Of a stretch of 61,390 nt of DNA, positions 1 through 21,303 are shown piece by piece. A program made the position numbers and the translations under genes. The stretch's first letter is position 1; every line of letters starts with the position of its first letter. The notes beneath the pieces are model-generated. The model saw nothing but the letters and a program-made list of their open reading frames with translations, searched no databases and was not told the origin of the DNA. The stretch lies in IMG/VR virus record IMGVR_UViG_3300050821_007029, one strand, 5' to 3'. The stretch comes from an uncultured virus (IMG/VR IMGVR_UViG_3300050821_007029) (lineage: Duplodnaviria; Heunggongvirae; Uroviricota; Caudoviricetes).

Positions 1-87
1 GCCGAGCTTGACCTGACCCCGTACCGGGCGGAGACCATCCTCACGGCGGCGCGGGCCAACGGGCACCTCAACGAGGAGGACCACTGA
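1..87 (+). CDS. 3' end of a truncated ORF (possibly Spd-like or other conjugation accessory protein)
   Basis: Frame 1 is open from base 1 (AELDLTPYRAETILTAARANGHLNEEDH*). Its TGA overlaps the ATG at 87 (TGATG coupling). Function is inferred from context only. Confidence 0.5.
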   Translation, partial: AELDLTPYRAETILTAARANGHLNEEDH

Positions 88-485
88 TGCCAGCGAAAAT
101 CACCGCGGGCAGCGCGCAGGCGAAAACCCTCGCGGCGCTGTCGAACATGGAGTTGCGCGGCACCACCGACGTCGCCGCCTACGCCGCGTCGGTGCGCGCG
201 ATCGCGTATCACTTCGCCCTCGAACTCGACGTGACCGCGCATGAGCTGCAGGTCGTCCTGGGGAAGGCGAAAGGCAGCATGATGGACCGCTTCCAGGCGC
301 GGATGGCGGCACGCCGGGTCGTCCGCAAACTGCGGGCAGCGGCGGAAGACGCCCGGTCGGTGGGTGACAACGCCGCCCGGTTCTGGGCGGACTACACCCG
401 CACCTACGCCGAGGTGATCAACCCCGACCGCAAGACCCGCGACACGTGGCAGTTCACCGAGAAACCAGCCGCGAAGGCGAAGTAA
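87..485 (+). CDS. TraA-like plasmid transfer accessory protein
   Basis: 132 aa, helical, with ARMAARRVVRKLRAAAE resembling actinomycete plasmid/AICE TraA proteins. GAGGAGG RBS; lies directly upstream of the TraB-like gene. Confidence 0.55.
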   Translation: MPAKITAGSAQAKTLAALSNMELRGTTDVAAYAASVRAIAYHFALELDVTAHELQVVLGKAKGSMMDRFQARMAARRVVRKLRAAAEDARSVGDNAARFWADYTRTYAEVINPDRKTRDTWQFTEKPAAKAK

Positions 486-567
486 GCGAACTACGCCGGG
501 CGGTAAACGAAGCAAACCGGGGGCGCTGGTCAGCTCCCGCCGTCCCATATCACCGGAGGGTTCCCCG

Positions 568-2496
568 ATGGCGCGGAGCCGCGACCATGAGAACCACACC
601 CTGGAGCGTGTCGCCGCCGGGGAACTGTCCCGTGTCGTCGTCGTGGCGCCACCGTGGCTGGCGTGGATCGCGACCCTCACCGGCGGCCTGCTGCTGCGGC
701 TGGCGTGGCCGCAGTGGGAAGCCGCCGCGTGTGTCGGGTCCGGCGGCCTCGTCCTGTCCGTCTTGGCGGCGCATCTGACCCGTCACCGCGAAGGCCTCGG
801 CCGTTACCTCGCCGCGGTCACGGTCCTGCTCGCGTTCGGGTGGCTCGCCACCGCGGAGGCGGCTGGGCTGACCCGGGTGGTGGTGGGGGTGTGGTTCATC
901 GGCGGCATGGTCGTCGCGTTCGGGTGGTCGATGTGGGTTCACATCCATGAGGGCGGCGACGAAGCCGGTGTGCATCACCTGTTCGGCCGCGCCGCGAAAC
1001 CCGCCAGCCTCGAAGGCGCCAAGGTCCTGTCGGTCAAGCTGGCCGGCCGCAAGACTCACGCCGTCGTCCAGCACCCACCCGGTGGGGTCACCGCGGACCT
1101 GATCAAACGCGCCCCGAACCTGGAATCGGCGATGGGCCTGCCCCCGAAGTCGATCACCGTCAGCCCGCATGAGGACCACGCCGGCCGCTCCCACGTCGTG
1201 TTCTCCGACCCCCGCGTGCTGAAAACCCCGGTGCCGTGGCCGGGGCCGTCGCGGCCGGGGGCGTCGATCGCGGAACCGGTGCGGCTCGGTTTGTGGCAGG
1301 ACTCCGAGCCCATGGACTACCGGGTGGTCAACCACCACAACCAGGTGATGGGCGCCACCGGCGTTGGCAAGACCATGTCGATGGGGTGGTGTGAGATCGC
1401 GGAGACGGTCACCCGCTATGACGCGGCGGTGCTGGCGTTCGACATCACCAAGGGTGAGCAGTTCCTCGGTCCGCTGCGGCCCGCCCTGCATTGCCTGGAA
1501 ACCACCCCGGAGGAGGCGCGGGCCCGGCTGCGGGCCCTGCATCCGCTGGTGCGGGCCCGCACTGACTACCTCGCCACCCAGCACCTGCCGTCGTGGCGGG
1601 AAGGCTGCGGCCTGACACATCTGACGATCTGGCTGGAGGAATGCCCCGACATCATCGCGCTCCTCGACGACGACGACCTCGAGGCGTGGCTGAGTGACGT
1701 CAAAGCTGGGCGGTCGGCGGGGATCCGGTGGGTGCTGTCGCTGCAGCGGTCCGACTGGACGCAGATGCCCACTCTCGCCCGCGGGCAGCTCGCCAAGACC
1801 TGCTTCGGTGTCCTCGACGACCAGGACGCCAGCTTCGGCCTGTCCGCCCGCCAGGCCGACGCCGGCTGCAGCCCGGAGCACTGGGGTTCGAGCCAGCCGG
1901 GGATGGCCTACATCGACGCCCCGTCGATCCCGGACGACCGGCGGATCATGCCGTGGCGGGCGTTCTTCTGGGGTGACGACAGCCACCTGATCGCCGCCCA
2001 CGCCGCCGAGTGGCCAGCCACCGACCGTCCACTCGACCATGTGACAGCGGCCGCGCTGGCTGATCTGGCGGCCGCTCCAGTGTTCCCGGCTGAAAACCCC
2101 CGGCCGGCTACTGTGGCCACAGCACCGGCCACCACACACCCGGCCACCCTCCACGTGGTCGAACCACCCGAGGTGGCCGAAGGAGATGATGAACCCGTGG
2201 CCGACATCGAAGTGGACGAAGACACACCGTTCGGCGCGTGGAAGTTCGGCGGCGACGCGCCGGCCAGTGAGCCGATGGACGCCGCCACCGCCCGCGACGT
2301 GGTCCGCCGCCAGCTGAACGAGTGGCGGCTGAAAGGCCAGACCACCTTCGGCATCCCCGAGCTCTCCGCGGTGCGTGAACGGACCGGCCGGTCGAGGCCG
2401 TGGCTGTATGACGTCCTCGCCGAGTTCGAACGTGACGGGGTCCTGCGGCAGCGGGGCACCAGCCCGTGGACATGGGAGATCCAGAGTGCGGCCTGA
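568..2496 (+). CDS. traB: TraB-like FtsK/SpoIIIE-family conjugative DNA translocase
   Basis: N-terminal hydrophobic TM segments, Walker A GATGVGKT, Walker B-like TIWLEE, GRSAGIRWVLSLQR motif, C-terminal winged helix (GRSRPWLYD). GGAGG RBS. Confidence 0.85.
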   Translation: MARSRDHENHTLERVAAGELSRVVVVAPPWLAWIATLTGGLLLRLAWPQWEAAACVGSGGLVLSVLAAHLTRHREGLGRYLAAVTVLLAFGWLATAEAAGLTRVVVGVWFIGGMVVAFGWSMWVHIHEGGDEAGVHHLFGRAAKPASLEGAKVLSVKLAGRKTHAVVQHPPGGVTADLIKRAPNLESAMGLPPKSITVSPHEDHAGRSHVVFSDPRVLKTPVPWPGPSRPGASIAEPVRLGLWQDSEPMDYRVVNHHNQVMGATGVGKTMSMGWCEIAETVTRYDAAVLAFDITKGEQFLGPLRPALHCLETTPEEARARLRALHPLVRARTDYLATQHLPSWREGCGLTHLTIWLEECPDIIALLDDDDLEAWLSDVKAGRSAGIRWVLSLQRSDWTQMPTLARGQLAKTCFGVLDDQDASFGLSARQADAGCSPEHWGSSQPGMAYIDAPSIPDDRRIMPWRAFFWGDDSHLIAAHAAEWPATDRPLDHVTAAALADLAAAPVFPAENPRPATVATAPATTHPATLHVVEPPEVAEGDDEPVADIEVDEDTPFGAWKFGGDAPASEPMDAATARDVVRRQLNEWRLKGQTTFGIPELSAVRERTGRSRPWLYDVLAEFERDGVLRQRGTSPWTWEIQSAA

Positions 2497-2749
2497 CCCG
2501 GAGAAGACCGAGATCATCCCCTTGAAGGCGTCCACGGTCCTGGCGCCTCACCGGGCCGTCGTGGTGCCGTGGCTGCGGCGCCACTCGTGGGCGCTGACCA
2601 TCGGACTGGCGGTGGTGTTCCTCGCCACCGCCAACCTCTGGTCCCCCATGACACCCCGCCACTACGCCGAACTCGCCGGCTTGTACGTGGTGGCGTTCGG
2701 CGGCGCGTACGTGGGCTCCCGCGGGCGCCCGGGCAGGCACAGGTCATGA
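2486..2749 (+). CDS. small two-TM membrane protein (Spd-like)
   Basis: GTG at 2486 overlaps the traB end; two hydrophobic segments (WALTIGLAVVFLAT, LAGLYVVAFGGAYV). Confidence 0.55.
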   Translation: MRPDPEKTEIIPLKASTVLAPHRAVVVPWLRRHSWALTIGLAVVFLATANLWSPMTPRHYAELAGLYVVAFGGAYVGSRGRPGRHRS

Positions 2750-2836
2750 TCATCCGCGGGCGGGCGTGGGCCCGGGCGGGCAGCCGCGTGGGGGCTGGGG
2801 GTGTCAGCGCGGGAGAGAGCCGCTGGTCACACGCCC

Positions 2837-2929
2837 CTGACGTGATCATCCGACGCCCGCTGAGGGTGCCTGACGTTGATCGTCCGACGTTTTCCAGGGA
2901 CAGTCTGACGTGATCATCGACCATCCGAC
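2837..2929. repeat. three imperfect direct repeats CTGACGT(T)GATCRTC(C)GAC, candidate clt/TraB-recognition locus
   Basis: Copies at 2837-2854, 2870-2888 and 2905-2921 (plus CATCCGAC at 2922-2929), spaced 33-35 bp, in the intergenic gap downstream of traB. Confidence 0.65.
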
Positions 2930-2947
2930 AGCCTTGGAAAGGGTTGA

Positions 2948-3781
2948 GTGACGATGTGGGGCAGGCTCCGGCGCGGTAGATCGCCTGCGGCCCAACTGCT
3001 GGCGGGACTGGGTGCGGAGACGTTCGGCTGCTTTCCCAGTCAGGGCTTTTGCGTCTACTGCCTGTGGGATGACCGTGACGTCTTGCTCTATGTGGGCCAG
3101 ACGACGAACCTCCTGCGCCGTCTCGGTGAGCATCAGCAGTCCCCGACGAGAGGCGCTTTCGTTCGGGTCTCCCTGTTCCGGTGTTACAGCGAGCGCCAGA
3201 TGCACCTCACGGAGGAGTGGCTAATCGACCGATTGCAGCCCCCCTTGAACGTGTGGGGCACCCGCGACCAGGAGGAACGCGCCAATAGCCGCATGGAAAG
3301 GGGCCGCGCCGCGTGGGCTGAGTCGAAGCAGGAGTTCGCGGAGATAGCCCGGCGGGAAGGCTGGGCTAAGGTTCAGCTGCGTCCTATGCCAGAACCGCGC
3401 AAGCGGCGGCGTTATCACCGTGAGCCCCCTTTGGCGCCCCCAATCGCGCCTGGCCTTCCGGTTCCCCCGGACGTTACGGCTGAGGTGCCCGAGGGTGGCG
3501 TCGAGGTTCCCGCAGCTCCGGTGACATTCCCGTTCTCACCGGAGCTTTCGACTGCGCGCTTCCGGGAGTGGCTCGCGCGGCATCCGGCTGGGTGGGTGTT
3601 CAAAGCATCCGATCTCGCGCCCATAGCGCTGGAGGTTGGCCGGTCGCGGCCGTGGTTGTACGACAAGATTGAGGAACTCGAAGCCGATGGCTCCATAGTC
3701 CGTCTAGGCGGGCAGCCCATGCAGTGGCGCTTGCGCCCGCTGCTGCTTAGCCCGGCTGATGCGGAGGCCGCCGGTGAGTGA
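2948..3781 (+). CDS. GIY-YIG endonuclease with a C-terminal TraB-like winged-helix domain
   Basis: CVYCL...LLYVGQTTNLLRRLGEH...EEWLIDRLQPPLN is a GIY-YIG core. The C-terminus shares GRSRPWLYD with TraB. Confidence 0.8.
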   Translation: MTMWGRLRRGRSPAAQLLAGLGAETFGCFPSQGFCVYCLWDDRDVLLYVGQTTNLLRRLGEHQQSPTRGAFVRVSLFRCYSERQMHLTEEWLIDRLQPPLNVWGTRDQEERANSRMERGRAAWAESKQEFAEIARREGWAKVQLRPMPEPRKRRRYHREPPLAPPIAPGLPVPPDVTAEVPEGGVEVPAAPVTFPFSPELSTARFREWLARHPAGWVFKASDLAPIALEVGRSRPWLYDKIEELEADGSIVRLGGQPMQWRLRPLLLSPADAEAAGE

Positions 3782-4079
3782 CCGCAGCCCTGGCCGGAGT
3801 CTCGCGCTGGCCGCCCTGATCCTTTTCGTCCTCGCGGCCGCCAGCCACAGCCTGGCCGCCATCGGGTGGGCGGTCCTGGCCGACGGGGCACTGGGCGCCT
3901 ATTACCTGTTCGACGTCCGCCGGCGGCCGTTCCTCCGCTGCGGCCGCTGCGGTGGGAGCAACCGGCTGCATTCGAAGGTGTGGACGTACGCGTTCGGCCA
4001 CTGCGGCCGATGCCACGGCACCGGGAAACGGCTCCGCCTGGGCGCCCGTGTGTTCTTCGGCCAGAAAGGACTCCGATGA
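3774..4079 (+). CDS. membrane protein with a DnaJ-like CxxCxG zinc-finger pair
   Basis: Two TM segments, then CGRCGG...CGRCHGTGKR. Similar small proteins commonly neighbour traB in actinomycete elements. ATGA overlap with the next gene. Confidence 0.65.
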   Translation: MSDRSPGRSLALAALILFVLAAASHSLAAIGWAVLADGALGAYYLFDVRRRPFLRCGRCGGSNRLHSKVWTYAFGHCGRCHGTGKRLRLGARVFFGQKGLR

Positions 4080-5416
4080 CGGCCACACTGGCCACGTTGT
4101 CCACCGGCGTGGAGCCACTGTCCGCGACCCGTGTCCGACTGACCGTGGACGTGCCGTTCAGCTATCTGCGGGAACCACTGGCGGCCGCGTACCGGGACGC
4201 CGCGAAACAGGTCATGGTCCCCGGGTTCCGCCCGGGGCACGCCCCCCCGAGGCTGATCGACCGCCGTGTCGGCCGGAAGACGGTGATCCAGCAGGCGCTG
4301 CGGCAGGTGCTGCCGGACCTGTACCGGGCGGCGGTGAAAGACGCCGGCCTACGTGTTCTTGGTGACCCGGACCTTGACGTCACCACCGTCGTCGATGAAG
4401 CCCATGTGGTGTTCACCGCCGACGTTGATGTCCGCCCCGAGATCACCCTCCCCGATTTCAGCGGCCTGGAAGTCACAGTCGACACCGCTGAGGTCACCGG
4501 CGGGGAGGTGGATGAGTTCCTGGCGGAGATGCGGGAACGGTTCGCGTGGCTCGAACCCGTCCACCGCCCCGCCAGCGCCAGCGACTACGTGACGCTGAGC
4601 ATGTCCGCGTCAGCCGGCGGCGAGCTCGTCAGCGACGCGCAGGTGACGCAGGTGTCCTACATGGTGGGCGCCGGAACCCTGTTCGCGTCCCTCGACACCG
4701 CCCTCACCGGCCTCAGCGCCGGCGACGTGACCATGGTCCGGGACAAGCTCCTCGGCGGCTCCCACGCCGGGCGGGAAGCCGACATCAAAGTCACCGTCGG
4801 CCGGGTCGCCGTCAAGGTCCTCCCCGAACTCGGCGACAAGTTCGCCGCGGACGCCAGCGAACACGACACCCTCACCGCGTGGCGCGAAACCATCACCCGG
4901 GACCTGGCCGCGGCGAAACGCGCCCGCCAGGCTGAGCAGGCCAGCCAGCGCGCTGTCGACGCGGTCCTCGCCGTGACCGATTTCCCGTTGCCTGAGTCGG
5001 CCGTCACGACGGCGGTGGAACAGCGGGAACGTCTCCTGCGGCGCCAGCCCGGAACCGGTGGGGTGTCCAGCGACATCGCCGGAGCGCGGCTGCCCGGCGC
5101 CGCTGACCTCGGCGGTGAGGTAATGGCGGAGGCGGAGAAGTCGGTGCGGACCGGGCTGCTTCTCGACCAGGTCGCCGAGGTCGCTGGGCTCACCACCGAC
5201 GGGGAGGAAGTCGCGGCGTTCGTCTCGGCGAAAGCCACCGAAGCGGGTGTCGACCCCGGCGATTTCCTGTCCGAAGTCACCGCGTATCACCAGGAGGCGG
5301 CGTTCGCCGTGGAGGTGCTCCGGGGCAAAGCCCTGGCGTGGCTCGCGTCTCAGGTCACCGTCCACGACACCGCCGGCGTCCCCGTCGACGTCACCGCGCT
5401 CAGGGAGGCCCAGTGA
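4076..5416 (+). CDS. tig: trigger factor (ribosome-associated chaperone/PPIase)
   Basis: Ribosome-binding signature VPGFRPGHAP, N-terminal VEPLSATRVRLTVDVPF, DVRPEITLPDFSGLEV, VKVLPELGDKFA. AAAGGA RBS before ATG 4076; 446 aa. Confidence 0.9.
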   Translation: MTATLATLSTGVEPLSATRVRLTVDVPFSYLREPLAAAYRDAAKQVMVPGFRPGHAPPRLIDRRVGRKTVIQQALRQVLPDLYRAAVKDAGLRVLGDPDLDVTTVVDEAHVVFTADVDVRPEITLPDFSGLEVTVDTAEVTGGEVDEFLAEMRERFAWLEPVHRPASASDYVTLSMSASAGGELVSDAQVTQVSYMVGAGTLFASLDTALTGLSAGDVTMVRDKLLGGSHAGREADIKVTVGRVAVKVLPELGDKFAADASEHDTLTAWRETITRDLAAAKRARQAEQASQRAVDAVLAVTDFPLPESAVTTAVEQRERLLRRQPGTGGVSSDIAGARLPGAADLGGEVMAEAEKSVRTGLLLDQVAEVAGLTTDGEEVAAFVSAKATEAGVDPGDFLSEVTAYHQEAAFAVEVLRGKALAWLASQVTVHDTAGVPVDVTALREAQ

Positions 5417-5901
5417 ACCAGCCAAGGGTGATCATGGGTGAGGTGTTCGGCCGGGCCGTCGCCGACGCTCTTGGCCTGGGTGATGGCTCCGGGATCCGCC
5501 GCATCGTAATCGACGCCCAGGCCGGCCGCGAACTTAAAGGCCACGTCGAGCATTACGGCGACGAACGGCTCCTGAATGTGGTGCCGCTCCTTGACGGTGT
5601 CGAAGTACACACCGGCACGCCACAGCGCGACCCCGGGGCACCCACGGCCACCCAGGCCATCTGGGACGCCGCCGGGGCAGCGGCCCGCCCGTTCGCCGCG
5701 GGCATCGCTGAGCAAGCCGCGGTCAGCGGCGACCTGAAAGTCATCGGCCGCGGCGTCGCCCGGGTCGCCCGCGCGGTCCTCACGGCCGTGGAGCCGCTGA
5801 TCCGCGCTGACGAACGCGCTCGCTGTTATCAGCCCACACATGGCCCTGACGAGCCGGATCAGCCGCCACCAGGCCCGGCGGGCACGTCAGGCGGCAGCTG
5901 A
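5413..5901 (+). CDS. hypothetical protein
   Basis: GTG overlaps the tig stop; translationally coupled to the next ORF. Confidence 0.55.
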   Translation: MNQPRVIMGEVFGRAVADALGLGDGSGIRRIVIDAQAGRELKGHVEHYGDERLLNVVPLLDGVEVHTGTPQRDPGAPTATQAIWDAAGAAARPFAAGIAEQAAVSGDLKVIGRGVARVARAVLTAVEPLIRADERARCYQPTHGPDEPDQPPPGPAGTSGGS

Positions 5902-6137
5902 TGCCGGGCGTCGTGGTGGAGCTCACCGACGGCTGCGAGGAGTATGAGGGAGGCGACTGTGTCCTCGGCGTCACGGGCCCCTTCCGGAACAAGGAAGCAG
6001 CCCGGGAGGCGTTCACCGCGGCGAAAGCCGCCGGGAACCGGCCTCACTGGGTTTCGCTGACGTCGCCGCTGGACTGGGATGCTTACCACGCGGGGCGGGC
6101 TCAGCCCGTGGTTGACCACGGGGACGTTTCTACATAA
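5901..6137 (+). CDS. hypothetical protein
   Basis: TGATG coupling; 78 aa with plausible composition. Confidence 0.55.
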   Translation: MPGVVVELTDGCEEYEGGDCVLGVTGPFRNKEAAREAFTAAKAAGNRPHWVSLTSPLDWDAYHAGRAQPVVDHGDVST

Positions 6138-6179
6138 GCTCGCGGTGACCGCCAACCACCACACCCGGAGGCACCCAAG

Positions 6180-6764
6180 GTGATGGGTCATACGCACAGC
6201 TTGTGCGGCGCCGCGGGGTGGCTCGCCACCAGCGCCTACCTTCACCTGCGCCCAGCGGCCGCGTTCGGCGGCGCGGCGATCTGCGGCCTCGCCGCGGTCT
6301 GCAACGACATCGACTCCAAACGCAGCGAAGCGTCCCGGTCCCTCGGCTACGTCACCGGCATCGTCTCCTGGGGGATCAGGAAGTCCTGCGGCGGCCACCG
6401 GAAAATCACCCACAGCCTCCTCGGGATCGCCTTGTTCGCCGGCGGCGCGGCGCTCGCCGTCCAGGCGGCGCACTGGCCCATGTGGATCGCCTGGGCGCTC
6501 ATCCTCGGATTCGTCAACCACACGGTCATGGACATGCTGACGAAGGAAGGCTGCCCGCTGCTGTGGCCCTGGTCAATGGTCCATTTCGCGTTGCTGCCCC
6601 GGTTCCTCCGGGTGACGACAGGCGGTAAGACCCGCCGGAAGCGCCGCCGGAACCAGGGCCGCGTCCACCATCATCTGCGGCGCGGCAGCGAGTATGTGGT
6701 GGTCCAGCCCCTCGCCGCCCTTGCCGCGCTGGGCAGCGTCATCCTGCTCGCCCTCGGCCGCTAG
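6180..6764 (+). CDS. YdjM-like membrane-bound metal-dependent hydrolase
   Basis: MMGHTH, DIDS, HRKITHSL and NHTVMDMLT..GCPLLWP motifs with TM segments. Confidence 0.85.
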   Translation: MMGHTHSLCGAAGWLATSAYLHLRPAAAFGGAAICGLAAVCNDIDSKRSEASRSLGYVTGIVSWGIRKSCGGHRKITHSLLGIALFAGGAALAVQAAHWPMWIAWALILGFVNHTVMDMLTKEGCPLLWPWSMVHFALLPRFLRVTTGGKTRRKRRRNQGRVHHHLRRGSEYVVVQPLAALAALGSVILLALGR

Positions 6765-6775
6765 GAGACACATCC

Positions 6776-7219
6776 GTGGAAGCCGAACCGGAACTCGCTC
6801 ACCTGGCCGCTGAGATCATCGTGCTGGGGGAGATCCAGGGCCAGCCGTGGGTACTGCTCGTGAAGCGCCGCTACCAGCCCTACCAGGGACAGTGGGCGCT
6901 GCCCGGCGGCCAGGCCGACGTGGGGGAAGACCTGCGCGCCACCGCGATCCGCGAGCTCCGCGAAGAAACGGGGCTCACCGCCGGGCTTCTGCGGCTCGTC
7001 GGAGTGTACGGGTACCCAGGCCGTGATCCTCGGGGACGATGGGTCAGCTGGGCGTACCTGAAACTCGTCGCCGGGGAACTGCCGACCGCGACGGCCGGCG
7101 ATGACGCGGCCGACGTCAGGTGGCATCCGGCGCGTGAAATCGCGTATGGGGGAATGCGGGTCGCGTTCGACCACGCTCACCTGGTCCGTGACGCGCTGCG
7201 GCTGGCGTCGTTCACCTGA
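6776..7219 (+). CDS. NUDIX hydrolase (ADP-ribose pyrophosphatase-like)
   Basis: Nudix box GGQADVGEDLRATAIRELREETGL, plus GRDPRG and AFDH motifs. AGGAG RBS. Confidence 0.92.
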   Translation: MEAEPELAHLAAEIIVLGEIQGQPWVLLVKRRYQPYQGQWALPGGQADVGEDLRATAIRELREETGLTAGLLRLVGVYGYPGRDPRGRWVSWAYLKLVAGELPTATAGDDAADVRWHPAREIAYGGMRVAFDHAHLVRDALRLASFT

Positions 7220-7226
7220 CCGGCGG

Positions 7227-7301
7227 TCAGGCCCCGCGGATCAGCCACACGATCAGGATGATCACCAGGATCAAGACGATCAGCCCACCCCCGACGTACA
7301 T
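7227..7301 (-). CDS. 24-aa single-TM small protein (MYVGGGLIVLILVIILIVWLIRGA)
   Basis: Translated by hand (below the ORF-track cutoff); strong GAGGAGG RBS upstream of the ATG. Confidence 0.7.
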   Translation of the reverse strand: MYVGGGLIVLILVIILIVWLIRGA

Positions 7302-7313
7302 GGAGCGGCCTCC

Positions 7314-7424
7314 TCAGCGGCGTGTCTGGTCAGGCGTCAGCAGCCGGAACAGCCACGGCAGTTCAGAACCGGGGCGGATGGTGTCGAGGGTCGCGGCGAA
7401 GCTGTTGCTGTTGGAGAGGTTCAT
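7314..7424 (-). CDS. 36-aa hypothetical protein
   Basis: Hand-translated MNLSNSNSFAATLDTIRPGSELPWLFRLLTPDQTRR; fills the gap between co-oriented genes. Confidence 0.35.
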   Translation of the reverse strand: MNLSNSNSFAATLDTIRPGSELPWLFRLLTPDQTRR

Positions 7425-7444
7425 GCCCGTGACGGTACGCCTGC

Positions 7445-7885
7445 TCACTCTGGATTGACAGCGCCTGTCGCCTGGGTGCGCCGGTCCAGGTCGGTGCCGT
7501 AGTCGAGCAGCAGGTACGGATCGTTCCCGGGACCATGGGCGGGTGGGGTGACCGGCTGCCCGTCTATGCGGAAGAACTCCGCGCGTTCATGGCGTTCGAC
7601 AAGGCCGATCTGGTCGAACAGCCACCACTTCCATGACCGCTCGTTGTACGCGGCGGGTGGCACGAGCATGTAATGCGCCACGAGGATGGTGTGTCCGGGG
7701 TGGTAGCTGTCCGGCACACGGGTGGTGATGACGAGCGTCAATCCCCGTGAGCCTTGCCCCCGGTCGGTGTCGGCGAGACGGAACGTCCACCCGTCCCGGT
7801 AGGAGAGGCGGTCCACGATGCTGGCGAGTTCGCGCGGGTAGGGCGCCACCTGCGTCATGGTTTCCGGCGTGGTGTGGTCGTTCAT
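7445..7885 (-). CDS. hypothetical phage protein
   Basis: 146 aa with globular composition; ATG overlaps the upstream stop. Confidence 0.7.
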   Translation of the reverse strand: MNDHTTPETMTQVAPYPRELASIVDRLSYRDGWTFRLADTDRGQGSRGLTLVITTRVPDSYHPGHTILVAHYMLVPPAAYNERSWKWWLFDQIGLVERHERAEFFRIDGQPVTPPAHGPGNDPYLLLDYGTDLDRRTQATGAVNPE

Positions 7886-9009
7886 GGGTTAACGGTAATG
7901 GCCGCGGCGAGGCGGCTGCCAGGTGTGGCGCCGACGGCGAGCTGCGCGGTGAAGGGCTTCACCTTCGGCGAACTCGTGTCCGACGCGGTGACGGCCGCGA
8001 CGGCCGCCGCCGCGCTGGCGGGTTTCACGGTGGCCGTCCGGCCGCCGGGGGCGATGGTGGTGGTGACGGGCCCGGTGAACGCCCAGCTGATCGTGTCGCC
8101 TGTCACGTCTCCGTGGTCGTCCTTTGGCGCGAGGGTGACGGTGGCGGTCTGCGCCGCGGTCATGAGCGTGTTGCCTGGCTGAGCGCCCATGACTTCCTGC
8201 CACAGGGTTTTCAGCAGAGCCGCGCGGGGGTCGGTGGGCCCGGTGATGGTGTTCGGGTGCGGCGGCGCGGCGGAGGGGTCGCCGTTGTACCACATGACGT
8301 CCGACACGGGCAGCCCAGCGGCGAGGCGGCCCGTGAGGAACGTGGTGACGTAGCTGAGGTAGGCGGTCAGCTGCGCCGTGGTGGGTGTGCCACCGGAGGC
8401 GGAGTTGCCGAGTTCGCCGATCCCGACGGGCAGCGGTGGGCTGGACTGGGCGGCGAGGGACGCGAGGGTGGCGAGGGTGGTGCCGGAGTCGTACGCGGTG
8501 CAGTACAGGTCCGCGGCGACGACGTCGCAGGATCCGCTGGGGAACCAGGAAGCCCACGCGGCTTCGCCCGCGCCGCCGGACGCGTCGTAGACGACGTCGA
8601 CACCGAGGGCGTGGAGAGCCGGGTAGTAGTAGGCGAACCCGGCTTTGCACGTGGCCGCGGACATGCCGGTGATGGTCTGGACTTCCTGCCACAGCACCAC
8701 CCGCACCCTGGCGCCCGCGTTCAGGAACGCTTCAACGGAGACGGCGAGGGAGCTGGCGTCGGCGGGGGTGCCGGGGAACGTGGGCTGGTAACACAGCCAC
8801 AGTGTGCAGCCCGCTCCGATGAGTTCAGCGACGTCGGCGGCTGGTGTGGTGGGGTACTGGGCTGGCTTGAAGTAGATCTTCTGCGCGGAGCGGGCCAGCG
8901 GCGCGCCGACGTAGCCGTCGAGGATGTCGGCGGTGGCGAGAACATCGGTGGTCCCCGTGTAGACGCCCTCTTTCGAGGTGGCGCCTACACGGGGAACCGG
9001 GCCGGTCAG
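7882..9009 (-). CDS. GH26-like (clan GH-A) glycoside hydrolase domain plus a C-terminal Ig-like domain; probable CTG start
   Basis: The frame is open well upstream of the track's GTG 8706. GGGAG RBS 6 nt before CTG 9009. VVLWQE and LPVGIGELG provide two candidate catalytic Glu. Paralogous to the N-terminus of 13866-16670. Confidence 0.65.
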   Translation of the reverse strand: MTGPVPRVGATSKEGVYTGTTDVLATADILDGYVGAPLARSAQKIYFKPAQYPTTPAADVAELIGAGCTLWLCYQPTFPGTPADASSLAVSVEAFLNAGARVRVVLWQEVQTITGMSAATCKAGFAYYYPALHALGVDVVYDASGGAGEAAWASWFPSGSCDVVAADLYCTAYDSGTTLATLASLAAQSSPPLPVGIGELGNSASGGTPTTAQLTAYLSYVTTFLTGRLAAGLPVSDVMWYNGDPSAAPPHPNTITGPTDPRAALLKTLWQEVMGAQPGNTLMTAAQTATVTLAPKDDHGDVTGDTISWAFTGPVTTTIAPGGRTATVKPASAAAAVAAVTASDTSSPKVKPFTAQLAVGATPGSRLAAAITVNP

Positions 9010-9022
9010 CTGGAACTCCCGG

Positions 9023-9517
9023 TCAGGGGGTGACGGTGATGTTGCCGACGAGCTGGCTGGTGGCCCCGGCGGTGACGTCGAGGGTGAACACCGTCGGCGA
9101 AAGCGTCGGTGACGACGGGTCGGTGCCAGTGATCGTCACGGTGCCTTCCGCGACCGGCACGAGGGTGACGGTGTGGGTGTCGGCGCTGACGGTCGGGGTG
9201 ACGACAGCGCCGTTGTCGCTGAACGTCCACGTGACCTGGTCCGGCGTCACATCGCCGTGGTCGTCCTCGGGCAGCAGGGTGATGACCGCGTTGGTGTTGT
9301 CGACCGTCATCTGCGCGCTGGTGGCCATGCTTTCTCCTTCAGTGGTGACCGACATGATCGGCCCGTGGGGGCCGTTGATGGTGAGCGACGCGGTGAACCG
9401 CGGCACGACCAGGGCGCGGAGCTCCTGGTAGAACTGCGCCACCGCCGTAGGCGGCGCGGAGCCGTCAGCGGCGAAGCCAGCGGCGATGAGAGCGGCCGCG
9501 TCCAGGCGGCCGCTCAA
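9023..9517 (-). CDS. Ig-like beta-sandwich protein (likely start ATG 9328)
   Basis: Thr/Val-rich beta protein. GAAGGAG RBS before ATG 9328. Shares DDHGDVT with the C-terminus of the adjacent gene. Confidence 0.7.
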   Translation of the reverse strand: MSGRLDAAALIAAGFAADGSAPPTAVAQFYQELRALVVPRFTASLTINGPHGPIMSVTTEGESMATSAQMTVDNTNAVITLLPEDDHGDVTPDQVTWTFSDNGAVVTPTVSADTHTVTLVPVAEGTVTITGTDPSSPTLSPTVFTLDVTAGATSQLVGNITVTP

Positions 9518-9613
9518 CTGGTTCCCTCAGCGGGGCTGAGTTCCGGGCCCACGCGGCCTCCTCGGGATTGGCTTCAGGGGCACCACGCGTGACGCTACAC
9601 CACACCAGGCCGC

Positions 9614-9988
9614 TCAGCGGAGCGGGTCGTGGTAGATCGCCGCCCACTTCACCAGCAGCGGCGATGGCGGCGGCAGCGTCCCCGGGCAATCCTGCCCGGT
9701 GAACGCCACACGGCCGCCAGCGAGGATCCCCACTCCCAGTTTCGACGGCTTCGACGTCCCGGGGACCTGGGTCAGGGGGAACCCAGCCAGGCTGCCGTAG
9801 AACTGACACGACGCGGTCAGTCTCTGATCGTCAATGGAAAGACGGTGCTGCTGCGCGATCAGGACGGCGGCGGCGGCCAGCAGCCCTAGCGTGAAAAGAG
9901 CCGCCAGGACGCCCACGGTGATCCACCGCAGACGGTGCCATTGCTGCACGGCGGCTTTCAGGCTCGCGTCAGCGTTGCCCGCGTTCAC
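9614..9988 (-). CDS. membrane protein, lysis region
   Basis: One long TM helix followed by a Cys-containing soluble part; coupled to the upstream gene. Confidence 0.65.
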   Translation of the reverse strand: MNAGNADASLKAAVQQWHRLRWITVGVLAALFTLGLLAAAAVLIAQQHRLSIDDQRLTASCQFYGSLAGFPLTQVPGTSKPSKLGVGILAGGRVAFTGQDCPGTLPPPSPLLVKWAAIYHDPLR

Positions 9989-10422
9989 CCCGGCGGCTTC
10001 CCAGCCATGGAATCCATCCTGGCCTGAATTGTGCTGAGAGTCTCGGCTATCTGGGTGATTGTCTCCGCCATAGCCTCGATCGCCGACTTCCCCGTGGCGA
10101 GGTCCTGCAGGACACTGACGCGGCCCTGCAGGTCACGGATCATCTGCTTGTCCTGCTCACCTTCCTGCTGGAGCGCCTCGATCCGCCCGTTCTGCTCATC
10201 GATGCGTTCCTTCTGCGTGTTGATAAGCGCGGCCTGGTCGGCGACGACCTGTGTGTGCCGCGCCACCCGCCACGACCCCGCGACGACACCCGTGACGGTG
10301 ACCAGGCCGGCGAGGATCGCGAAGAACTCCAGCACCCCCCCCAGGGTGATCAGCCCGGGCGGCTGGTGAGCGAGCGCCACGATGATCACGTAAGTGATCT
10401 TAGGGTGCGGCTGGCGGTTCAC
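9985..10422 (-). CDS. membrane-anchored coiled-coil protein (holin-associated candidate)
   Basis: TM segment followed by a heptad-rich region (QKERIDEQNGRIEALQQ). Confidence 0.7.
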   Translation of the reverse strand: MNRQPHPKITYVIIVALAHQPPGLITLGGVLEFFAILAGLVTVTGVVAGSWRVARHTQVVADQAALINTQKERIDEQNGRIEALQQEGEQDKQMIRDLQGRVSVLQDLATGKSAIEAMAETITQIAETLSTIQARMDSMAGKPPG

Positions 10423-10449
10423 CCCCAGATCGGGCCGCGGCGCGCGAGG

Positions 10450-11073
10450 TCACGTTCCTGGCCGCCGCGTCTGCCCCCGGTCCCGCAGGGCCGCTGACAA
10501 CTCCATGATCCTGGCGCTGGTGGCCTCGATCGCCGCCAGGGCCTCCACCGTGGGCTCACGGCCCGCCTGCCGGTTGAGTTCCACCACTTCCCGCATCATC
10601 GCCAGCTCCCGGCGTGTGGCGTCGAGTTCCGCCTGCATCGCCGCGGTCATGCTGGAGTTCACCAGGTCGTGGATCACACCCAGTTTGCCGCTGATCCCCG
10701 CCGAGGTGCGTTCCACGAGCTCGTTGTTCTCCAGCAGCAGCCGCGCCGCTTCCTCGGCCTGCACCCGCGCGTCTTCCGCGTGGGCGGCGACCTGCTCCTG
10801 TGATTCCAGCAGCAGCCGCGCCGCCTCAGCCGCCTGTTCCGCCACCGCGGCCGCGGCTTCACGTGCCTTGTCCGACGCCTCAGCGGCGTCAGCGGCGACC
10901 TTGTCCTGCCGCGCGTAGTCGGCCTTGCGGTCCTCACGGTGCATCCGCTCGGTGCGGGCGGCGAGGATCAGCGGGGCGGTGACACTGCTGAACAGCACCA
11001 CCGCGACCACCTCGACGAGCGGCGCGGCCGCGTGAAGCTGCGAGACTAGGCCCCCAGCCTCGAGGACTCCCAT
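10450..11073 (-). CDS. membrane-anchored coiled-coil protein
   Basis: N-terminal TM, Ala/Glu coiled coil with repeated AEEAARLLLE, and an IHDLVNSSMT motif. Confidence 0.7.
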   Translation of the reverse strand: MGVLEAGGLVSQLHAAAPLVEVVAVVLFSSVTAPLILAARTERMHREDRKADYARQDKVAADAAEASDKAREAAAAVAEQAAEAARLLLESQEQVAAHAEDARVQAEEAARLLLENNELVERTSAGISGKLGVIHDLVNSSMTAAMQAELDATRRELAMMREVVELNRQAGREPTVEALAAIEATSARIMELSAALRDRGQTRRPGT

Positions 11074-11084
11074 AATGCGTAGCC

Positions 11085-11636
11085 TTAAGGTGACGTCTTC
11101 ACTCCGGCGTTGAGCATGTGTGCGTGGATCATGTCGATCCGGGCGCGGGCCTCGGCGGCGACATGAGGATCACGGATCACGGTCATCTGGTTGTCCTGCA
11201 ATGTCTCGCCGCTGGTGGACCAGTTCGTTGAGCCGGTGACGACATCCACCCCATCGACAAGGACCATTTTCATGTGCATGATGGCGCCCCGTTCGCTGCG
11301 GCCCACCGCGACAGAGTTCGACGGCAGGACGTCTTTCGCGAGCAGCGCCGCCTCATGCTTCCCCGACGCCTGCGACGAGTCGAGAGTGAGTTGCACGAAC
11401 ACGTTCTCGTCGTCGAGTTTCTCCAGCAGCGCCGCCGCGAGATCATCGTCGTCGTAGCCGTACATCGCGCAAACGAGGCTGCGGTTCGCGGATTTCACCA
11501 GCGCGACGAGTGCACCGTGAACGTCGTCGACCGGGGAGTAGAACGTCGGCGTGGACTCCTCGGGGTAGCCGGGAGCGAAACCGCCGGTCTTGAACTGCGC
11601 CAGTTGCGTGAGACTGTCGAGGGCCATGTGATCCAC
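11085..11636 (-). CDS. phospholipase D-superfamily protein (single HKD, Nuc-like)
   Basis: HMKMVLVD followed by TGSTNWS...QDN; AMYGY motif. Probable leaderless start at the second Met (MALDS). Confidence 0.88.
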
Positions 11637-11719
11637 GATAACCCTGGGGGCCGTGGTTCAGGTTTGGCGCTCCGTCAAGGCCCGGGCCAGTTCGGCCGCC
11701 ACCCGCGCGGTATGCGGCG

Positions 11720-11899
11720 TCACGTGTCGTCCAGGTCGAGGATGTGCGCGAGGGCGTAGTGGCCCCGGTACCCAGCCATCGTCCAGAAGCGGCGCCCGCA
11801 GTGGCAGTGCTTGCGGACGCCGTAGAACGGCACCGGGATCGCTGGCACCCACACGCCGGCCCGGTTAGTGGCCTGGACGTCACCGGCTGAGCCCGCCAT
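11720..11899 (-). CDS. small C2H2-type zinc-finger protein
   Basis: CHCGRRF..MAGYRGHYALAH. Confidence 0.5.
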   Translation of the reverse strand: MAGSAGDVQATNRAGVWVPAIPVPFYGVRKHCHCGRRFWTMAGYRGHYALAHILDLDDT

Positions 11900-11934
11900 C
11901 AGCCGCTGACCTGAGCCGGAGTGGCCGCGGCGCA

Positions 11935-12171
11935 TCAGCCCACGCCGGTGGTGAACAGCACCGCGAGTTCCCGCTCCACGACGGTGAACGCCTTCTCCGC
12001 CGCGGCGATCTCCGCGGGGGAGAGGTTCTCCAGGTCGTGGGTCACCTCCGCGCGGGCCCTGTCGACGGCTTCGGAGACGAGGGCGTGGGCGTGCTCGACG
12101 GCCTTGGTGACGGCGCTGTCCGCGCCGCCGAACAGGTCCTTGATGCGCTGCCAGATGGTGACGCTGCCCAT
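11935..12171 (-). CDS. hypothetical helical protein
   Basis: 78 aa; GGAAGGA RBS. Confidence 0.6.
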   Translation of the reverse strand: MGSVTIWQRIKDLFGGADSAVTKAVEHAHALVSEAVDRARAEVTHDLENLSPAEIAAAEKAFTVVERELAVLFTTGVG

Positions 12172-12189
12172 ATCGGGTTCCTTCCGGTC

Positions 12190-12711
12190 CTAGTGGTAGC
12201 CGGCGCGCTCGGCGAGCATCGCCGGGGTGACGTAGCCGTCCCATTCTCCAGGGAACAGGTGTATCCCCGCGGCGTCGTAACAGGCCGCCACCAGCGCCGA
12301 GCAGATTTCATGATGTGTGCTGGCGATGTAGGACCGCAGCCCGGGGAACGGGATGTGGAGACGCCGCAGCGCGAGCGCGAGGTAATCAGCCCATGAGTAC
12401 GGAGTCTTGCTCAGGGCGAAGCCCAGCGCCACGGCAGCGATCTCTTCCCGCTGCGCGGTGGTGAGTTCCAGGCCGAGACGCCCGGTGGACCACACCACCG
12501 GGGCGCCGGGCACGGCGACTTCCCGGGCGCCACCAGGCTCAGCCTCCACCACCCGCAGCGGGTGAACCGAGGTGACCACGAACGCGTGATCCCAGCGTGT
12601 GAAACCGTCCCCATTCAGCCACTCGAGGAAGCTGACGAGCGGGCCGGTGGGACCGCCGATGGGGCAGCAGCCGTAGTCGCCCAGTTGGGGGTGAACCGGT
12701 GGGGCCGTCAT
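12190..12711 (-). CDS. permuted papain-like (YiiX/YebB, NlpC/P60-related) amidase/peptidase
   Basis: His precedes Cys: WDHAFVV ... TPYSW ... ICSALVAACY ... VTPAML. This is the 3' part of track ORF 12190..13584. Confidence 0.75.
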   Translation of the reverse strand: MTAPPVHPQLGDYGCCPIGGPTGPLVSFLEWLNGDGFTRWDHAFVVTSVHPLRVVEAEPGGAREVAVPGAPVVWSTGRLGLELTTAQREEIAAVALGFALSKTPYSWADYLALALRRLHIPFPGLRSYIASTHHEICSALVAACYDAAGIHLFPGEWDGYVTPAMLAERAGYH

Positions 12712-12730
12712 CAGAGTTGCGGGGGTTTGC

Positions 12731-13564
12731 TCATTGGACGGACTTCCAGCGGATCCCGGCGCGGAGCTTCCCGGAGGTGAGACCGGGGACGTCGCCGCCG
12801 AGTTTCTCCTGCTCGGCCAGCCACTCCGGGGCGCTTTCGTTGCGGCTCGCGGAGAGCGACCCGATCGTGTCGTGGCGCCTGGTGAGGTGCGTGTAGGGCG
12901 GCCCCGCGGCGGCCGCCTGGAAGCTGGCGATCCACGCGTCGAGCTGCGCGACGGTGCCGTTGAACGCGTCCGCGTCGTCGCCGTTCCGCAGCCCCCACTG
13001 CCAGAAGTCCCATTCCACCCACGGCGGCGGTGGGGTGGGGGCGGTCGCGGACGGGTAGGCGAGCCACAGGGCGTAGCCGCCGAGGCCAGCGCAGCCGCCG
13101 TCGCGGGCGAAATTGATGAACGTGTACACGCCGTGGGGGTTGTGGGGGCGCAGGGTGGCGAGTTCAGCCATGAACGCCCGCGCGCACGCCGCCGCCTGCG
13201 GATAACCACCGGACCCGAGGGTTTCGTTGTCGCAGAACAGCATGTCCGTGTCGACGAGCCCAAGGCCGGCGAGGGTGTCCACCATGTAGCGGGCCTGCGC
13301 GGCGCCGTCAAGTTCGGGGTCGAGGAAGTGGTAGGCGCCCCGGTGGAGGCCGGCGTCGCGGATCGCGTCGTGGTTGTAGAAATCGTCGGGGTCGGGGCTG
13401 TTGGTTCCGGTGCCGCCGAGGCCCTGGGTGACGCGGTAGATCCCGCCGCAGATCCCCGCCTTGGCGGCGGCGCTCCAATCGAGATGTCCCTGATAGTTCG
13501 ACACGTCGAGCAGCTGCGCTGACTGGACGCCGTCAAGTGGATGGTAGAGGCGGATCTCACCCAT
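12731..13564 (-). CDS. endolysin, GH25 muramidase with a degenerate LysM-like C-terminus
   Basis: DVSNYQG, GAYHF, CDNE (DxE), LWLAY, FWQW and DADAFNG motifs. GGGGAGG RBS before ATG 13564. Confidence 0.9.
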   Translation of the reverse strand: MGEIRLYHPLDGVQSAQLLDVSNYQGHLDWSAAAKAGICGGIYRVTQGLGGTGTNSPDPDDFYNHDAIRDAGLHRGAYHFLDPELDGAAQARYMVDTLAGLGLVDTDMLFCDNETLGSGGYPQAAACARAFMAELATLRPHNPHGVYTFINFARDGGCAGLGGYALWLAYPSATAPTPPPPWVEWDFWQWGLRNGDDADAFNGTVAQLDAWIASFQAAAAGPPYTHLTRRHDTIGSLSASRNESAPEWLAEQEKLGGDVPGLTSGKLRAGIRWKSVQ

Positions 13565-13605
13565 GCGACCTCCCCTGTGGCCACGGAGTGGCCTGTAGCT
13601 GGATA

Positions 13606-13851
13606 CTACGCCGGGGGCGTGACAGGTGCCGTGAGCTGAGTCGCGCCGACGTTCCGCATCGGCAGCGCGTACACCTGCCCAGCGGTGTCGGTGAACTGAA
13701 CCCATGGCTCACCCGAGGTGAGGGTCTCATCGGTGACGGGGTCGGTGAACTGGGGGTCGAGGATCGCGCCGAGGCTTGTGCCGGGCTGGATCGAATGCCA
13801 TGTGCTGTCGGGCAGCAGCACCGCGGTCGCGGCGGCGAGGCTGATCGCCAT
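13606..13851 (-). CDS. hypothetical protein
   Basis: AAGGAAG RBS before ATG 13851 (MAISLAAATAVLLPD). Confidence 0.6.
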   Translation of the reverse strand: MAISLAAATAVLLPDSTWHSIQPGTSLGAILDPQFTDPVTDETLTSGEPWVQFTDTAGQVYALPMRNVGATQLTAPVTPPA

Positions 13852-16670: not shown

Positions 16671-16679
16671 GGCGGCCCG

Positions 16680-16874
16680 TCAGAAGACGCGCCCGTAGGC
16701 GTTGTAGTTCGCCGACGCGGTGAACCCCGTCAGGGTGCTGCTCACCGCTGGTGGGGTGCCAGCGGCCCCCGATGGGGTCCAGGAACCGGTGCCGCAGATG
16801 ATCGGCGTGACACCGGTCAGGTTGGTGACGAGGGCCTCATCACCGGCGAACGTGGGCATCGCCGCGCCGGTCAT
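16680..16874 (-). CDS. small tail-associated protein
   Basis: ATGA overlap with the upstream tail gene; Thr/Gly-rich. Confidence 0.55.
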   Translation of the reverse strand: MTGAAMPTFAGDEALVTNLTGVTPIICGTGSWTPSGAAGTPPAVSSTLTGFTASANYNAYGRVF

Positions 16875-19405: not shown

Positions 19406-19433
19406 CAGAGCACCCCGCCTTTCATGATGCGTG

Positions 19434-20405: not shown

Positions 20406-20418
20406 GCCGGGCTCCTGT

Positions 20419-21303
20419 TCACGCCATCCACCGTGGCCGGTAGGACAGTTCAGCGACCGCCCCAGGCGCGGCCGCGTCGGGGTAGTACCGCAGCTGGTTG
20501 GGGCCGGGCTGCATCATCCACCAGTCTGACGTGGCGAAATTCAGGGAACCCAGCACCGATGAGGCCGTGTCGCCGTTCAGCAGCGCCGTGTGCGCCTGGG
20601 AGTCCAGCGCGACGAACTCCCCCGCGGCCAGGACCAGGTCGTCGGTGAACTCCAGCGTCAGCCCCGCGGAGTCGTTAGCGAACTTGGGTCCCGTCGCGGG
20701 CCCGTACAGGCTCGCGGTCCAGGGGGCGGCCATGTTGCCGCCGGCGACGACGACGGGGGAACCGCTGATCGACGCCGCCGTCCACGCCAAACCGGACGCC
20801 ACCCACGCCAAACCCGCGGTGACCCAGTTCAGGCCCCCGGACGCGGGTATGTAGGCGGGGACCGCCGCCGAGTCCTGCGCGGCGCCTTCCCAGCATGAGT
20901 TGGGCGCCATGAACGAATACGCCACGTCCGTCGTCAGCGGATTGTCAACGATCTTCGTTTTGGAGTCGAACCTCACCACCAGCTGCCGGTCCTGCGGCCA
21001 CGCGTCGTTGGAGCAGATCAGGTAAGGGCGCAGCTGCGGCGCGCACAGCGCCCCCATCAGGTCCTCGAACGCCTCCGGCGCCATCGCCCCCGGCACCGCC
21101 GCCAAACGCAGCGACAGGGTCACCGCCGCCGCGGACAGCCACAGGGTCGAGTCGACCTGCCCGGCGCCGCCGACACGTTCCTCAGCGACCGCCCTGGCCT
21201 GCGGCGCGACCTGCAGCGACAGAACCGTCACCCCCGCCAGGCCCTGAATATCCTGCGACAGGCCCGAGACGGGGTCCATGAGAGACACGGCGGTGAACGC
21301 CAT
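20419..21303 (-). CDS. distal tail protein (Dit)-like
   Basis: Directly after the tape measure gene. GPATGP...LAAGEFVALDS...WWMMQPGPNQLRY pattern. Confidence 0.8.
   Translation of the reverse strand: MAFTAVSLMDPVSGLSQDIQGLAGVTVLSLQVAPQARAVAEERVGGAGQVDSTLWLSAAAVTLSLRLAAVPGAMAPEAFEDLMGALCAPQLRPYLICSNDAWPQDRQLVVRFDSKTKIVDNPLTTDVAYSFMAPNSCWEGAAQDSAAVPAYIPASGGLNWVTAGLAWVASGLAWTAASISGSPVVVAGGNMAAPWTASLYGPATGPKFANDSAGLTLEFTDDLVLAAGEFVALDSQAHTALLNGDTASSVLGSLNFATSDWWMMQPGPNQLRYYPDAAAPGAVAELSYRPRWMA

Follow-up and report, generated by a model that had tools for sequence, protein, structure and literature searches.

A candidate actinomycete-type DNA transfer module in the genome of a large uncultured tailed phage

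In the IMG/VR record of an uncultured virus (IMGVR_UViG_3300050821_007029) we found a group of genes related to the conjugation proteins TraA and TraB of actinomycetes. These genes lie on one molecule with the virion genes of a tailed phage, they include a full-length TraB, and the module recurs in several phage lineages. The stretch that was analysed, hereafter the window, is 61,390 nucleotides long with 69% G+C, and holds about 60 genes, which were called by third-position GC content and identified by family scans. The gene group, which we call the island, runs on the plus strand from position 87 to 7219, with the end of one further gene before it, and meets the phage late operon head-on at 7219/7227, so that the original prediction of tra-type genes converging with late genes at this point was correct in coordinates and in content. 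We give about even credence to the reading that the island is a resident double-stranded DNA (dsDNA) transfer module of the actinomycete type inside a tailed-phage genome of about 123 kb; the transfer would be carried out by TraB.

TraB (568..2496, +; 642 aa) was recognised as a TraB-like, FtsK/SpoIIIE-type dsDNA translocase by its match to the NCBIfam model NF041214 (E 2.2e-94, 317 bits), in which residues 21-631 align with model positions 4-626 of 639, and the TraA-like protein encoded upstream of it (87..485, +; 132 aa) matches NF041213 (E 3.1e-17, 63 bits) and phrog_38590. The Walker A motif of TraB reads GATGVGKT, and its lysine, together with residues of the Walker B and arginine regions, is invariant across 15 homologues. 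The AlphaFold2 model based on 15 homologues (mean pLDDT 79) starts with four hydrophobic helices (residues 12-127), continues with a beta domain, a P-loop motor at about 257-500 and a disordered linker, and ends in a helix-helix-helix-strand-strand unit (572-638); according to this model, TraB has an N-terminal membrane anchor and a C-terminal winged helix for DNA recognition. When the model was compared with the PDB by Foldseek, the top matches were the FtsK-like coupling protein TcpA and FtsK motor domains, with E about 1e-13 and target TM-scores of 0.58-0.70. A sequence profile of TraB gave a weak match to FtsK in the PDB (E 0.02, at the Walker A and B regions), and phmmer of TraB against the PDB gave none. 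Relatives of TraB were detected by tblastn in 54 plasmid records at 24-42% identity, 48 of them from Streptomyces and many annotated as traB, while none was detected at E 1e-5 among 50,697 phage records. A protein search returned 329 homologues at E <=1e-10, the nearest being metagenomic and 49-52% identical, and all the named ones among them belong to Streptosporangiales. Judged by sequence, the relationship of the tra genes to actinomycete TraA and TraB is genuine, and the earlier description of the pair as TraA-like and TraB/FtsK is borne out by the NF041213 and NF041214 matches and by the FtsK-like predicted fold.

That the tra genes belong to the same molecule as the virion genes, as had been proposed, is supported by three assemblies that agree on the junctions. 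The IMG/VR contig G002 (locus L001; 38,935 b) is 100% identical to the window over an overlap of 12,493 b and extends it 21,351 b leftwards. This leftward extension, which the original prediction had put forward as a way of finding integrase, rep or par genes, revealed phage early and replication genes instead: near the island there are small early-type genes, including an HNH endonuclease, a cro-like repressor and phrog_9210, and farther out a DnaB-like helicase, RusA, DUF4262 and winged-helix proteins. The left-flank genes share the strand of the late genes, and the island, of about 7.8 kb, stands on the opposite strand within an otherwise one-directional phage genome. Contigs of a third assembly, from Logan run X1, bridge the left junction (19,083 b, depth 10.8) and the right junction (37,287 b, depth 10.6) at equal depth. 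In run X2, from another study, the eight short pieces listed, out of many more, showed zero differences and came from places dispersed across flank, island and late region. The sequence seen amounts to 82,741 b, to which pattern scans at the two outer ends added no more than 2,273 b, on the right-hand side; this makes about 85 kb in all, with about 38 kb of the genome outside view; TraB is recorded on a contig of 123,390 b, and the CheckV completeness estimates of the fragments imply about 120 kb.

Scans of the window and its flanks for tRNAs, repeats and gene families agree with the earlier statement that no att site, integrase or host housekeeping synteny is visible. The window and the left flank contain no tRNA, around the island there are no flanking repeats above a chance 12-mer and no att-like repeat, and integrase families had no match in the window or, as far as these were scanned, in its flanks (21.3 kb on the left, 2.3 kb on the right). 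The left flank holds no host DNA, and no host housekeeping genes were found except a divergent homologue of the trigger factor gene tig. Because the flank consists of phage early and replication genes, the module lies inside a single phage genome of about 123 kb and is not an adjacent actinomycete integrative and conjugative element (AICE). The reading as a single element is thus strongly supported. The host of this large tailed phage is a filamentous actinomycete of soil, probably from the Streptosporangiales.

The plus-strand operon opens with a DUF2637-like membrane protein with a C-terminal helix-turn-helix (236 aa; phrog_733, E 1e-10), whose gene begins outside the window, 623 b to its left (L001 8810-9520), has its 3' end at 1..86 and overlaps the traA start with its stop. 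In an Actinomadura locus, the protein encoded upstream of traA-traB has a DUF2637 region, to which the phage protein is 40% identical (E 1e-16). Divergent from its gene lies a ribbon-helix-helix (RHH)-like gene of 58 aa, homologous to the Arc-like repressor (phrog_6506) of a related phage, G003, described below. Downstream of traB, a small membrane protein with two transmembrane (TM) segments is indicated by the GC3 frame plot (2522..2749, +), with an uncertain start (TTG 2522 or GTG 2561) and without a family match, and it is followed by a non-coding stretch of direct repeats (2745..2925), a candidate clt or operator. Next come a GIY-YIG endonuclease (2948..3781, +; PF01541, E 5e-6; phrog_16880), which is probably a selfish insertion and has a further GIY-YIG gene for company at 60309-60941, and the tig homologue (3866..5416, +; TIGR00115, 277 bits, above the cut-off of 180), which in the collection's own gene call has 446 aa and starts near 4076. 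The latter matches Trigger_N and Trigger_C, has no FKBP/PPIase match in Pfam and reaches no more than 44% identity with cellular tig, and because of this low identity and the absent FKBP match we regard it as an old, divergent capture; tig-like sequences also occur in 26 phage records, mostly unannotated 'Bacteriophage sp.' from fecal samples. Two open reading frames (ORFs) of 155 and 78 aa (5434..6137, +) have no assigned family, being without match in Pfam, NCBIfam, PHROGs and PADLOC. The island then continues with a YdjM-family membrane metal-dependent hydrolase (6180..6764, +; PF04307, E 1e-24), among whose homologues the His and Asp columns are invariant, and ends with a NUDIX hydrolase (6776..7219, +; PF00293, E 8e-25) that is Pif-like by position.

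The core of the module is made up of the divergent RHH regulator, the DUF2637-like membrane/HTH protein, TraA, the TraB pump, the small membrane protein and YdjM, and the NUDIX hydrolase, the homing endonuclease and the trigger-factor homologue are additions to it. The GIY-YIG gene, the tig homologue and the two unassigned ORFs were absent from the original prediction. The gap of 7 bp at the right end is real, since the NUDIX stop ends at 7219 and a hydrophobic minus-strand ORF of 24 codons ends at 7227. Promoter and terminator scans gave nothing exceeding shuffles, and Rfam at gathering thresholds gave 0 matches in the whole window. A predicted complex of TraB residues 1-260 with YdjM scored 0.00 against a mark of 0.32, which is evidence neither way. 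We also considered whether the region reads as a defence island; this is unsupported, as PADLOC, run on 19 proteins of the island and lysis end, matched only the NUDIX protein (PDC-S07, weakly) and the phospholipase D (PLD)-like protein of the late operon (DrmC-like).

Two scans of viral contigs yielded 27 distinct TraB loci, the window's own included. Virion or lysis genes adjoin traB at no fewer than 15 of them, and the convergent arrangement of the window is found at ten, window counted; the search for related phages with traB next to lysis genes, which had been suggested as a check, thus shows that many phages and prophages keep traB by their lysis or tail genes. Three of these loci are especially informative. 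G003 (60 kb) is a related siphophage, with adaptor and tail proteins 29-39% identical to those of the window and with RecE/RecT, methyltransferases and Lsr2, and its module comprises an Arc-like RHH gene, TraA (48%), TraB (52%) and, downstream of traB, YdjM (46%). G004 (37.5 kb) has a capsid and terminase of a different family, and carries TraB, with a YdjM homologue (29%) downstream of its gene, just upstream of the terminase; immediately upstream of its tra region there is also a queuosine/7-deazaguanine set (L025 167-4044; tgt-like, QueC, QueE and GTP cyclohydrolase). G005 (100 kb, rated 90% complete) is a temperate siphophage with the small terminase at its start and an HNH gene at its end, in which an integrase, TraB (42%), TraA and a 524-aa protein stand past the lysis cassette on the opposite strand, followed by a second integrase and early genes; a test of its tRNA-Arg did not find an att-like repeat.

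In bacterial genomes, scanned with one genome per species, we obtained 57 TraB loci, all in Streptosporangiales genera. Homologues of the G005 lysin, Dit, tape measure or terminase lie downstream and converge on traB at 11 of these 57 loci, in Nonomuraea, Streptosporangium and Herbidospora, and virion genes common to the window's phage were found at none of the 57. One of the scans behind the count of at least 15 viral loci covered proteins of at least 230 aa (at least 200 aa in low-GC loci), with L100 excluded as a duplicate of L099. As a separate observation, five low-GC viral contigs (L014-L018; 40-45% G+C, 35-132 kb) carry TraB-like genes of 25-27% identity and TraA-like genes, a pair that adjoins thymidylate synthase, RNase H and glycosyltransferase genes, so that phages beyond the high-GC actinomycetes may have the TraA/TraB pair too.

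The module also appears to have a phage-specific form. In TraB trees of 67 and 82 sequences, which leave out rows of fewer than 450 aa and rows truncated where a locus ends (L085, L089), the TraBs of the window, G003 and G004 form one clade with SH-aLRT 99, and with L093-L095 added there is a six-row, all-viral clade with support 99. The TraB of G005, on the other hand, nests among chromosomal TraBs. The RHH regulator and the YdjM partner are common to the window, G003 and G004. With local hidden Markov models, YdjM was detected at 6 of 27 viral loci (3 strong, 3 weak) and the RHH regulator at 4 of 27, both at 0 of 57 genome loci, whereas TraA was detected at 21 of 27 viral and 56 of 57 genome loci, the DUF2637-like protein at 2 of 27 and 12 of 57, and NUDIX at 2 of 27 and 9 of 57. 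The synteny with YdjM and RHH lends support independent of the trees to a phage-specific form of the module, and the most fitting description of the module is an actinomycete TraB transfer system in a variant adapted to phage.

A candidate docking site was found downstream of traB. Direct repeats of TGATC(A/G)TCCG(A/C)CG start at 2747, 2843 and 2877, with a degenerate copy at 2911, in the non-coding stretch that separates the small membrane gene from the GIY-YIG gene. The motif TGATCRTCCG has 3 matches in the 61-kb window, all of them in the repeat stretch and inside 140 bp, where 0.45 would be expected for the whole window, and a scan for clusters of exact k-mers found no island array other than these repeats. 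In G004, three 19-nt direct repeats follow directly after the traB stop. The sequence GACCCGGA, which we take to be the 8-mer of pSVH1, is not enriched in the window (10 matches versus 5.9 expected) and its matches are scattered.

The module would most likely serve to move phage dsDNA, without need of a capsid, from one hyphal compartment or hypha to another, a proposal that we hold to have an equal chance of being right or wrong. Under this proposal, hexamers of TraB in the membrane would dock via their winged-helix tails on the repeat array downstream of traB, and would pump unprocessed phage dsDNA into adjacent hyphal compartments or hyphae, while YdjM and the membrane proteins would fill the role of the plasmid Spd proteins. 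Because it carries TraA/TraB pump genes of the kind with which plasmids of actinomycetes move dsDNA from hypha to hypha, the phage may spread without virus particles, and this would be a route that needs neither capsid nor receptor.

Among known systems, the module can best be compared with the TraB-clt-Spd systems of Streptomyces plasmids, in which, according to the passages available of PMC4447253, TraB binds clt repeats and pumps unprocessed dsDNA, TraB and clt are sufficient for transfer, and Spd proteins drive intramycelial spread. As in pSVH1, pSN22, pIJ101 and pSAM2, there is a membrane-anchored FtsK-like pump with a winged helix and a TraA partner, an upstream DUF2637-type membrane protein, small membrane proteins, a NUDIX hydrolase and repeats downstream of the pump gene. 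Unlike these systems, the module lies within a tailed-phage genome, lacks an integrase, Rep and a GntR repressor, and has RHH and YdjM as conserved partners, which occur at 0 of 57 chromosomal TraB loci. The order DUF2637-TraA-TraB-NUDIX is that of an AICE-like locus of Actinomadura, which also has GntR, XRE and prim-pol genes. An AICE combines integrase, Rep and Tra, with att in a tRNA (PMC2440964 and PMC3218068, in the parts available). RepSA, RepAM and Prim-Pol have no counterpart in the island, and the module fails AICE membership because integrase, Rep and att site were not found. The analogy drawn earlier between the NUDIX protein and Pif, the NUDIX immunity factor of pSAM2 (PMC2440964, likewise in part), does have a basis, as the window's NUDIX is 34% identical to the one beside traB in the Actinomadura locus and 42% identical to pZL12.76c of the element described next.

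The Streptomyces plasmid-phage pZL12, or phage ZL12, was reportedly described by Zhong et al. in 2010 (J Bacteriol 192:3747), and had been named as a precedent. By its GenBank record it resembles the window's phage in being a tailed-phage genome with the FtsK/SpoIIIE-like pZL12.71c, membrane-protein neighbours, the NUDIX pZL12.76c and a divergent regulator, and it also has ParAB, an integrase and a GntR gene. It differs in that ParAB and integrase were not seen in the 85 kb of the window's phage and in that the virion genes are unrelated at the DNA level; positions 1-7300 of the window gave no megablast match to the phage records, and with blastn one NUDIX match of 122 b to ZL12. The product of pZL12.71c is barely related to TraB, with 25% identity over 102 aa around Walker A only (pairwise E 0.01), and pZL12.20c, which we considered as a tra gene, has no similarity to TraB, the FtsK-like gene being pZL12.71c. 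By its pump the module is not a pZL12 relative. pZL12 has been cited as conjugative (PMC3583192, as far as its available text goes). The portion available of a 2025 review treats a conjugative phage-plasmid or prophage as not known, and in the available text of the literature searched no TraB-type pump in a tailed phage is described, except in citations of pZL12. A further comparison is with the temperate siphophages and prophages of Streptosporangiaceae of the G005 type, in which TraA/TraB likewise stand opposite the late operon and converge on lysis or tail genes. They differ in the integrase beside traB (G005 and L009), in a conserved protein of about 520 aa that accompanies TraA-TraB at eight viral loci, in the absence of the YdjM and RHH partners, and in that their TraBs, where placed in the trees, nest among chromosomal ones.

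Other explanations of the island have to be weighed against a transfer module of the phage. The pump might have been domesticated for a role internal to the phage, such as moving or segregating phage DNA through septa into the compartments of spores, or keeping out incoming DNA, with the NUDIX acting like Pif and TraB/YdjM altering the envelope. Relatives of FtsK clear DNA from closing septa, the phage-type TraB is long-branched, its GntR/Spd context has been swapped for RHH and YdjM, and Pif-type NUDIX proteins act in immunity to transfer (PMC2440964, in the passages available). We nevertheless consider such a role unlikely, as the full TraB architecture is kept, including the winged helix for DNA recognition predicted by the model, along with TraA, and no PADLOC defence family matches TraB, TraA or YdjM. 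It is quite unlikely, too, that the phage is a conjugative phage-plasmid, that is, an extrachromosomal plasmid prophage donated by lysogens via TraB as reported for pZL12. An integrase was not found in the 85 kb seen, and the island runs against early and late genes alike, on the strand where temperate phages usually carry their lysogeny-expressed genes. The NUDIX identity of 42% to pZL12.76c points the same way, and so does pZL12 itself, in which a virion module goes together with ParAB, NUDIX, GntR and an FtsK-like gene and which has been cited as conjugative (PMC3583192, in part). Plasmid Rep and ParA, however, were not found in the 85 kb, the one ParB-like match (58649-59251) adjoins the terminase genes and is without Pfam match, and the replication genes seen, a DnaB-like helicase and RusA, are phage-type. 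The label of phage-plasmid in the original prediction is hence not supported, as the 85 kb in view, out of about 123 kb, yielded neither a replication initiator nor ParA nor another plasmid-maintenance gene, and of its claim that the element spreads both as virions and by conjugation, the part on conjugation is not supported and stays conjectural.

An AICE that hitch-hikes in the phage genome for its own spread, or a remnant of one decaying as cargo, would explain why the order DUF2637-TraA-TraB-NUDIX recurs in the Actinomadura AICE-like locus, why the integrase of G005 abuts a traB whose product nests among chromosomal ones, and why there is a homing endonuclease in the island. Against this, the island has no integrase, Rep, flanking repeats or tRNA, the tRNA-Arg test in G005 gave no att-like repeat, phage-only partners are conserved across phages with different virion modules, and TraB is intact and of full length, so that we regard this origin as very unlikely. 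Finally, the sequence comes from a metagenome assembly, and tRNA hot-spots are often common to AICEs and prophages; a chimeric assembly, or a host chromosome in which a prophage neighbours a separate AICE, could in principle have produced such a junction. We consider this extremely improbable, given three assemblies with the same junctions and equal contig depth, phage genes on both sides of the island, no host housekeeping genes besides the tig homologue (<=44% identical to cellular ones), and the identical short pieces of flank, island and late region in run X2 of a second study.

Several observations weigh against a working transfer module of the phage. The scores of both tra proteins lie far below the NCBIfam cut-offs, with 317 bits for TraB against an equivalog cut-off of 800 (NF041214) and 63 bits for TraA against a curated cut-off of 80 (NF041213), and the Pfam FtsK_SpoIIIE model does not match TraB. 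The array at 2745-2925 could be an operator for downstream genes instead of a clt, and G003 has no clear comparable repeat array. A GntR-type kil-kor repressor (TraR/KorA) has no match in the island or flanks, where there is a divergent RHH gene instead, and no Spd homologue was verified, in a comparison made without a SpdB2 reference sequence, although DUF2637-like 4-TM and 2-TM proteins are present. NUDIX stands beside TraB at only 2 of the 27 viral loci, and the GIY-YIG and tig genes are cargo without relation to transfer. The phage-type TraB clade joins long branches, for which the tool flags possible long-branch attraction. The X1 contigs are not independent support, because X1 is probably the source sample, and the 85 kb seen of about 123 kb contain no marker of the phage's lifestyle (integrase, rep or par).

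To the right of the island the window is occupied by a siphovirus late arm. Between 7445 and about 59 kb almost every gene has minus-strand orientation, and together these genes make up a complete virion arm, with full sets of virion, packaging and lysis genes. The distal late operon (7227..13705, -) contains the 24-aa TM ORF (7227-7301), unassigned genes, a GH25 endolysin (12731-13705) and, downstream of the endolysin, the PLD-like nuclease (11085-11636), which resembles DrmC of DISARM (PADLOC, E 3e-9). The virion module (13866..56331, -) includes minor tail proteins and a chaperone, as well as Dit (20419-21303), the tape measure (21304-26082), the tail tube (28100-28579), the adaptor (29995-30828), a protease-capsid fusion (43926-47183), the portal (47265-49727; 820 aa) and the large terminase (53758-56331; 857 aa), and beside the terminase genes there is the ParB-like nuclease-domain protein mentioned above.

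The portal and the large terminase each carry an insert with LAGLIDADG/homing-endonuclease matches, and these inserts are most likely inteins. At the DNA level the two inserts have stretches in common that are 72-75% identical (repeat families D16 and D18), so that two essential packaging genes seem to harbour inteins related to each other. Between portal and terminase lies a Ro60/TROVE and vWA protein (51510-53165, -; E 1e-59 and 1e-41), a homologue of which is also found near the TraB of viral locus L096; no Y-RNA was found in the window at Rfam gathering thresholds. A protein with a Tad2-like (Thoeris anti-defence 2) domain is encoded at 49938-50276 (-; E 1.6e-22). Four glycosyltransferases and three methyltransferases (35228-42333, -) stand between the head and the head-tail connector genes and may put sugars on virions, and glycosyltransferase-like genes are among the head genes of G005 as well. 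Beside the head-tail adaptor, a 603-aa protein (30833-32644, -) consists in its C-terminal two thirds of repeats of about 18 residues around LTGAGTLT, encoded by repeat DNA of 75% G+C, and is a possible surface fibre or decoration protein.

Phages and conjugative elements count as separate routes of gene flow, and pZL12, the sole precedent in Streptomyces, is little known and has a barely related pump. The TraA/TraB module described here is a stable and recurrent part of several phage lineages, and since close analogues exist in cultured Streptosporangiaceae genomes, the question of its function is directly testable. More generally, and as a tentative idea whose chances we place below even, phages of mycelial actinomycetes could possess their own apparatus for cell-to-cell movement, made of TraB, TraA, a YdjM-type hydrolase and docking repeats, by which naked genomes would pass through septa or between hyphae, much as the movement proteins of plant viruses carry genomes from cell to cell; the related integrase-bearing prophages of Nonomuraea and Streptosporangium would then be self-conjugative. 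If the module works, the host range of such phages and their persistence in soil mycelium would not be limited by receptors or capsid size, and filamentous bacteria would join plants as hosts of viruses that move from cell to cell without particles.

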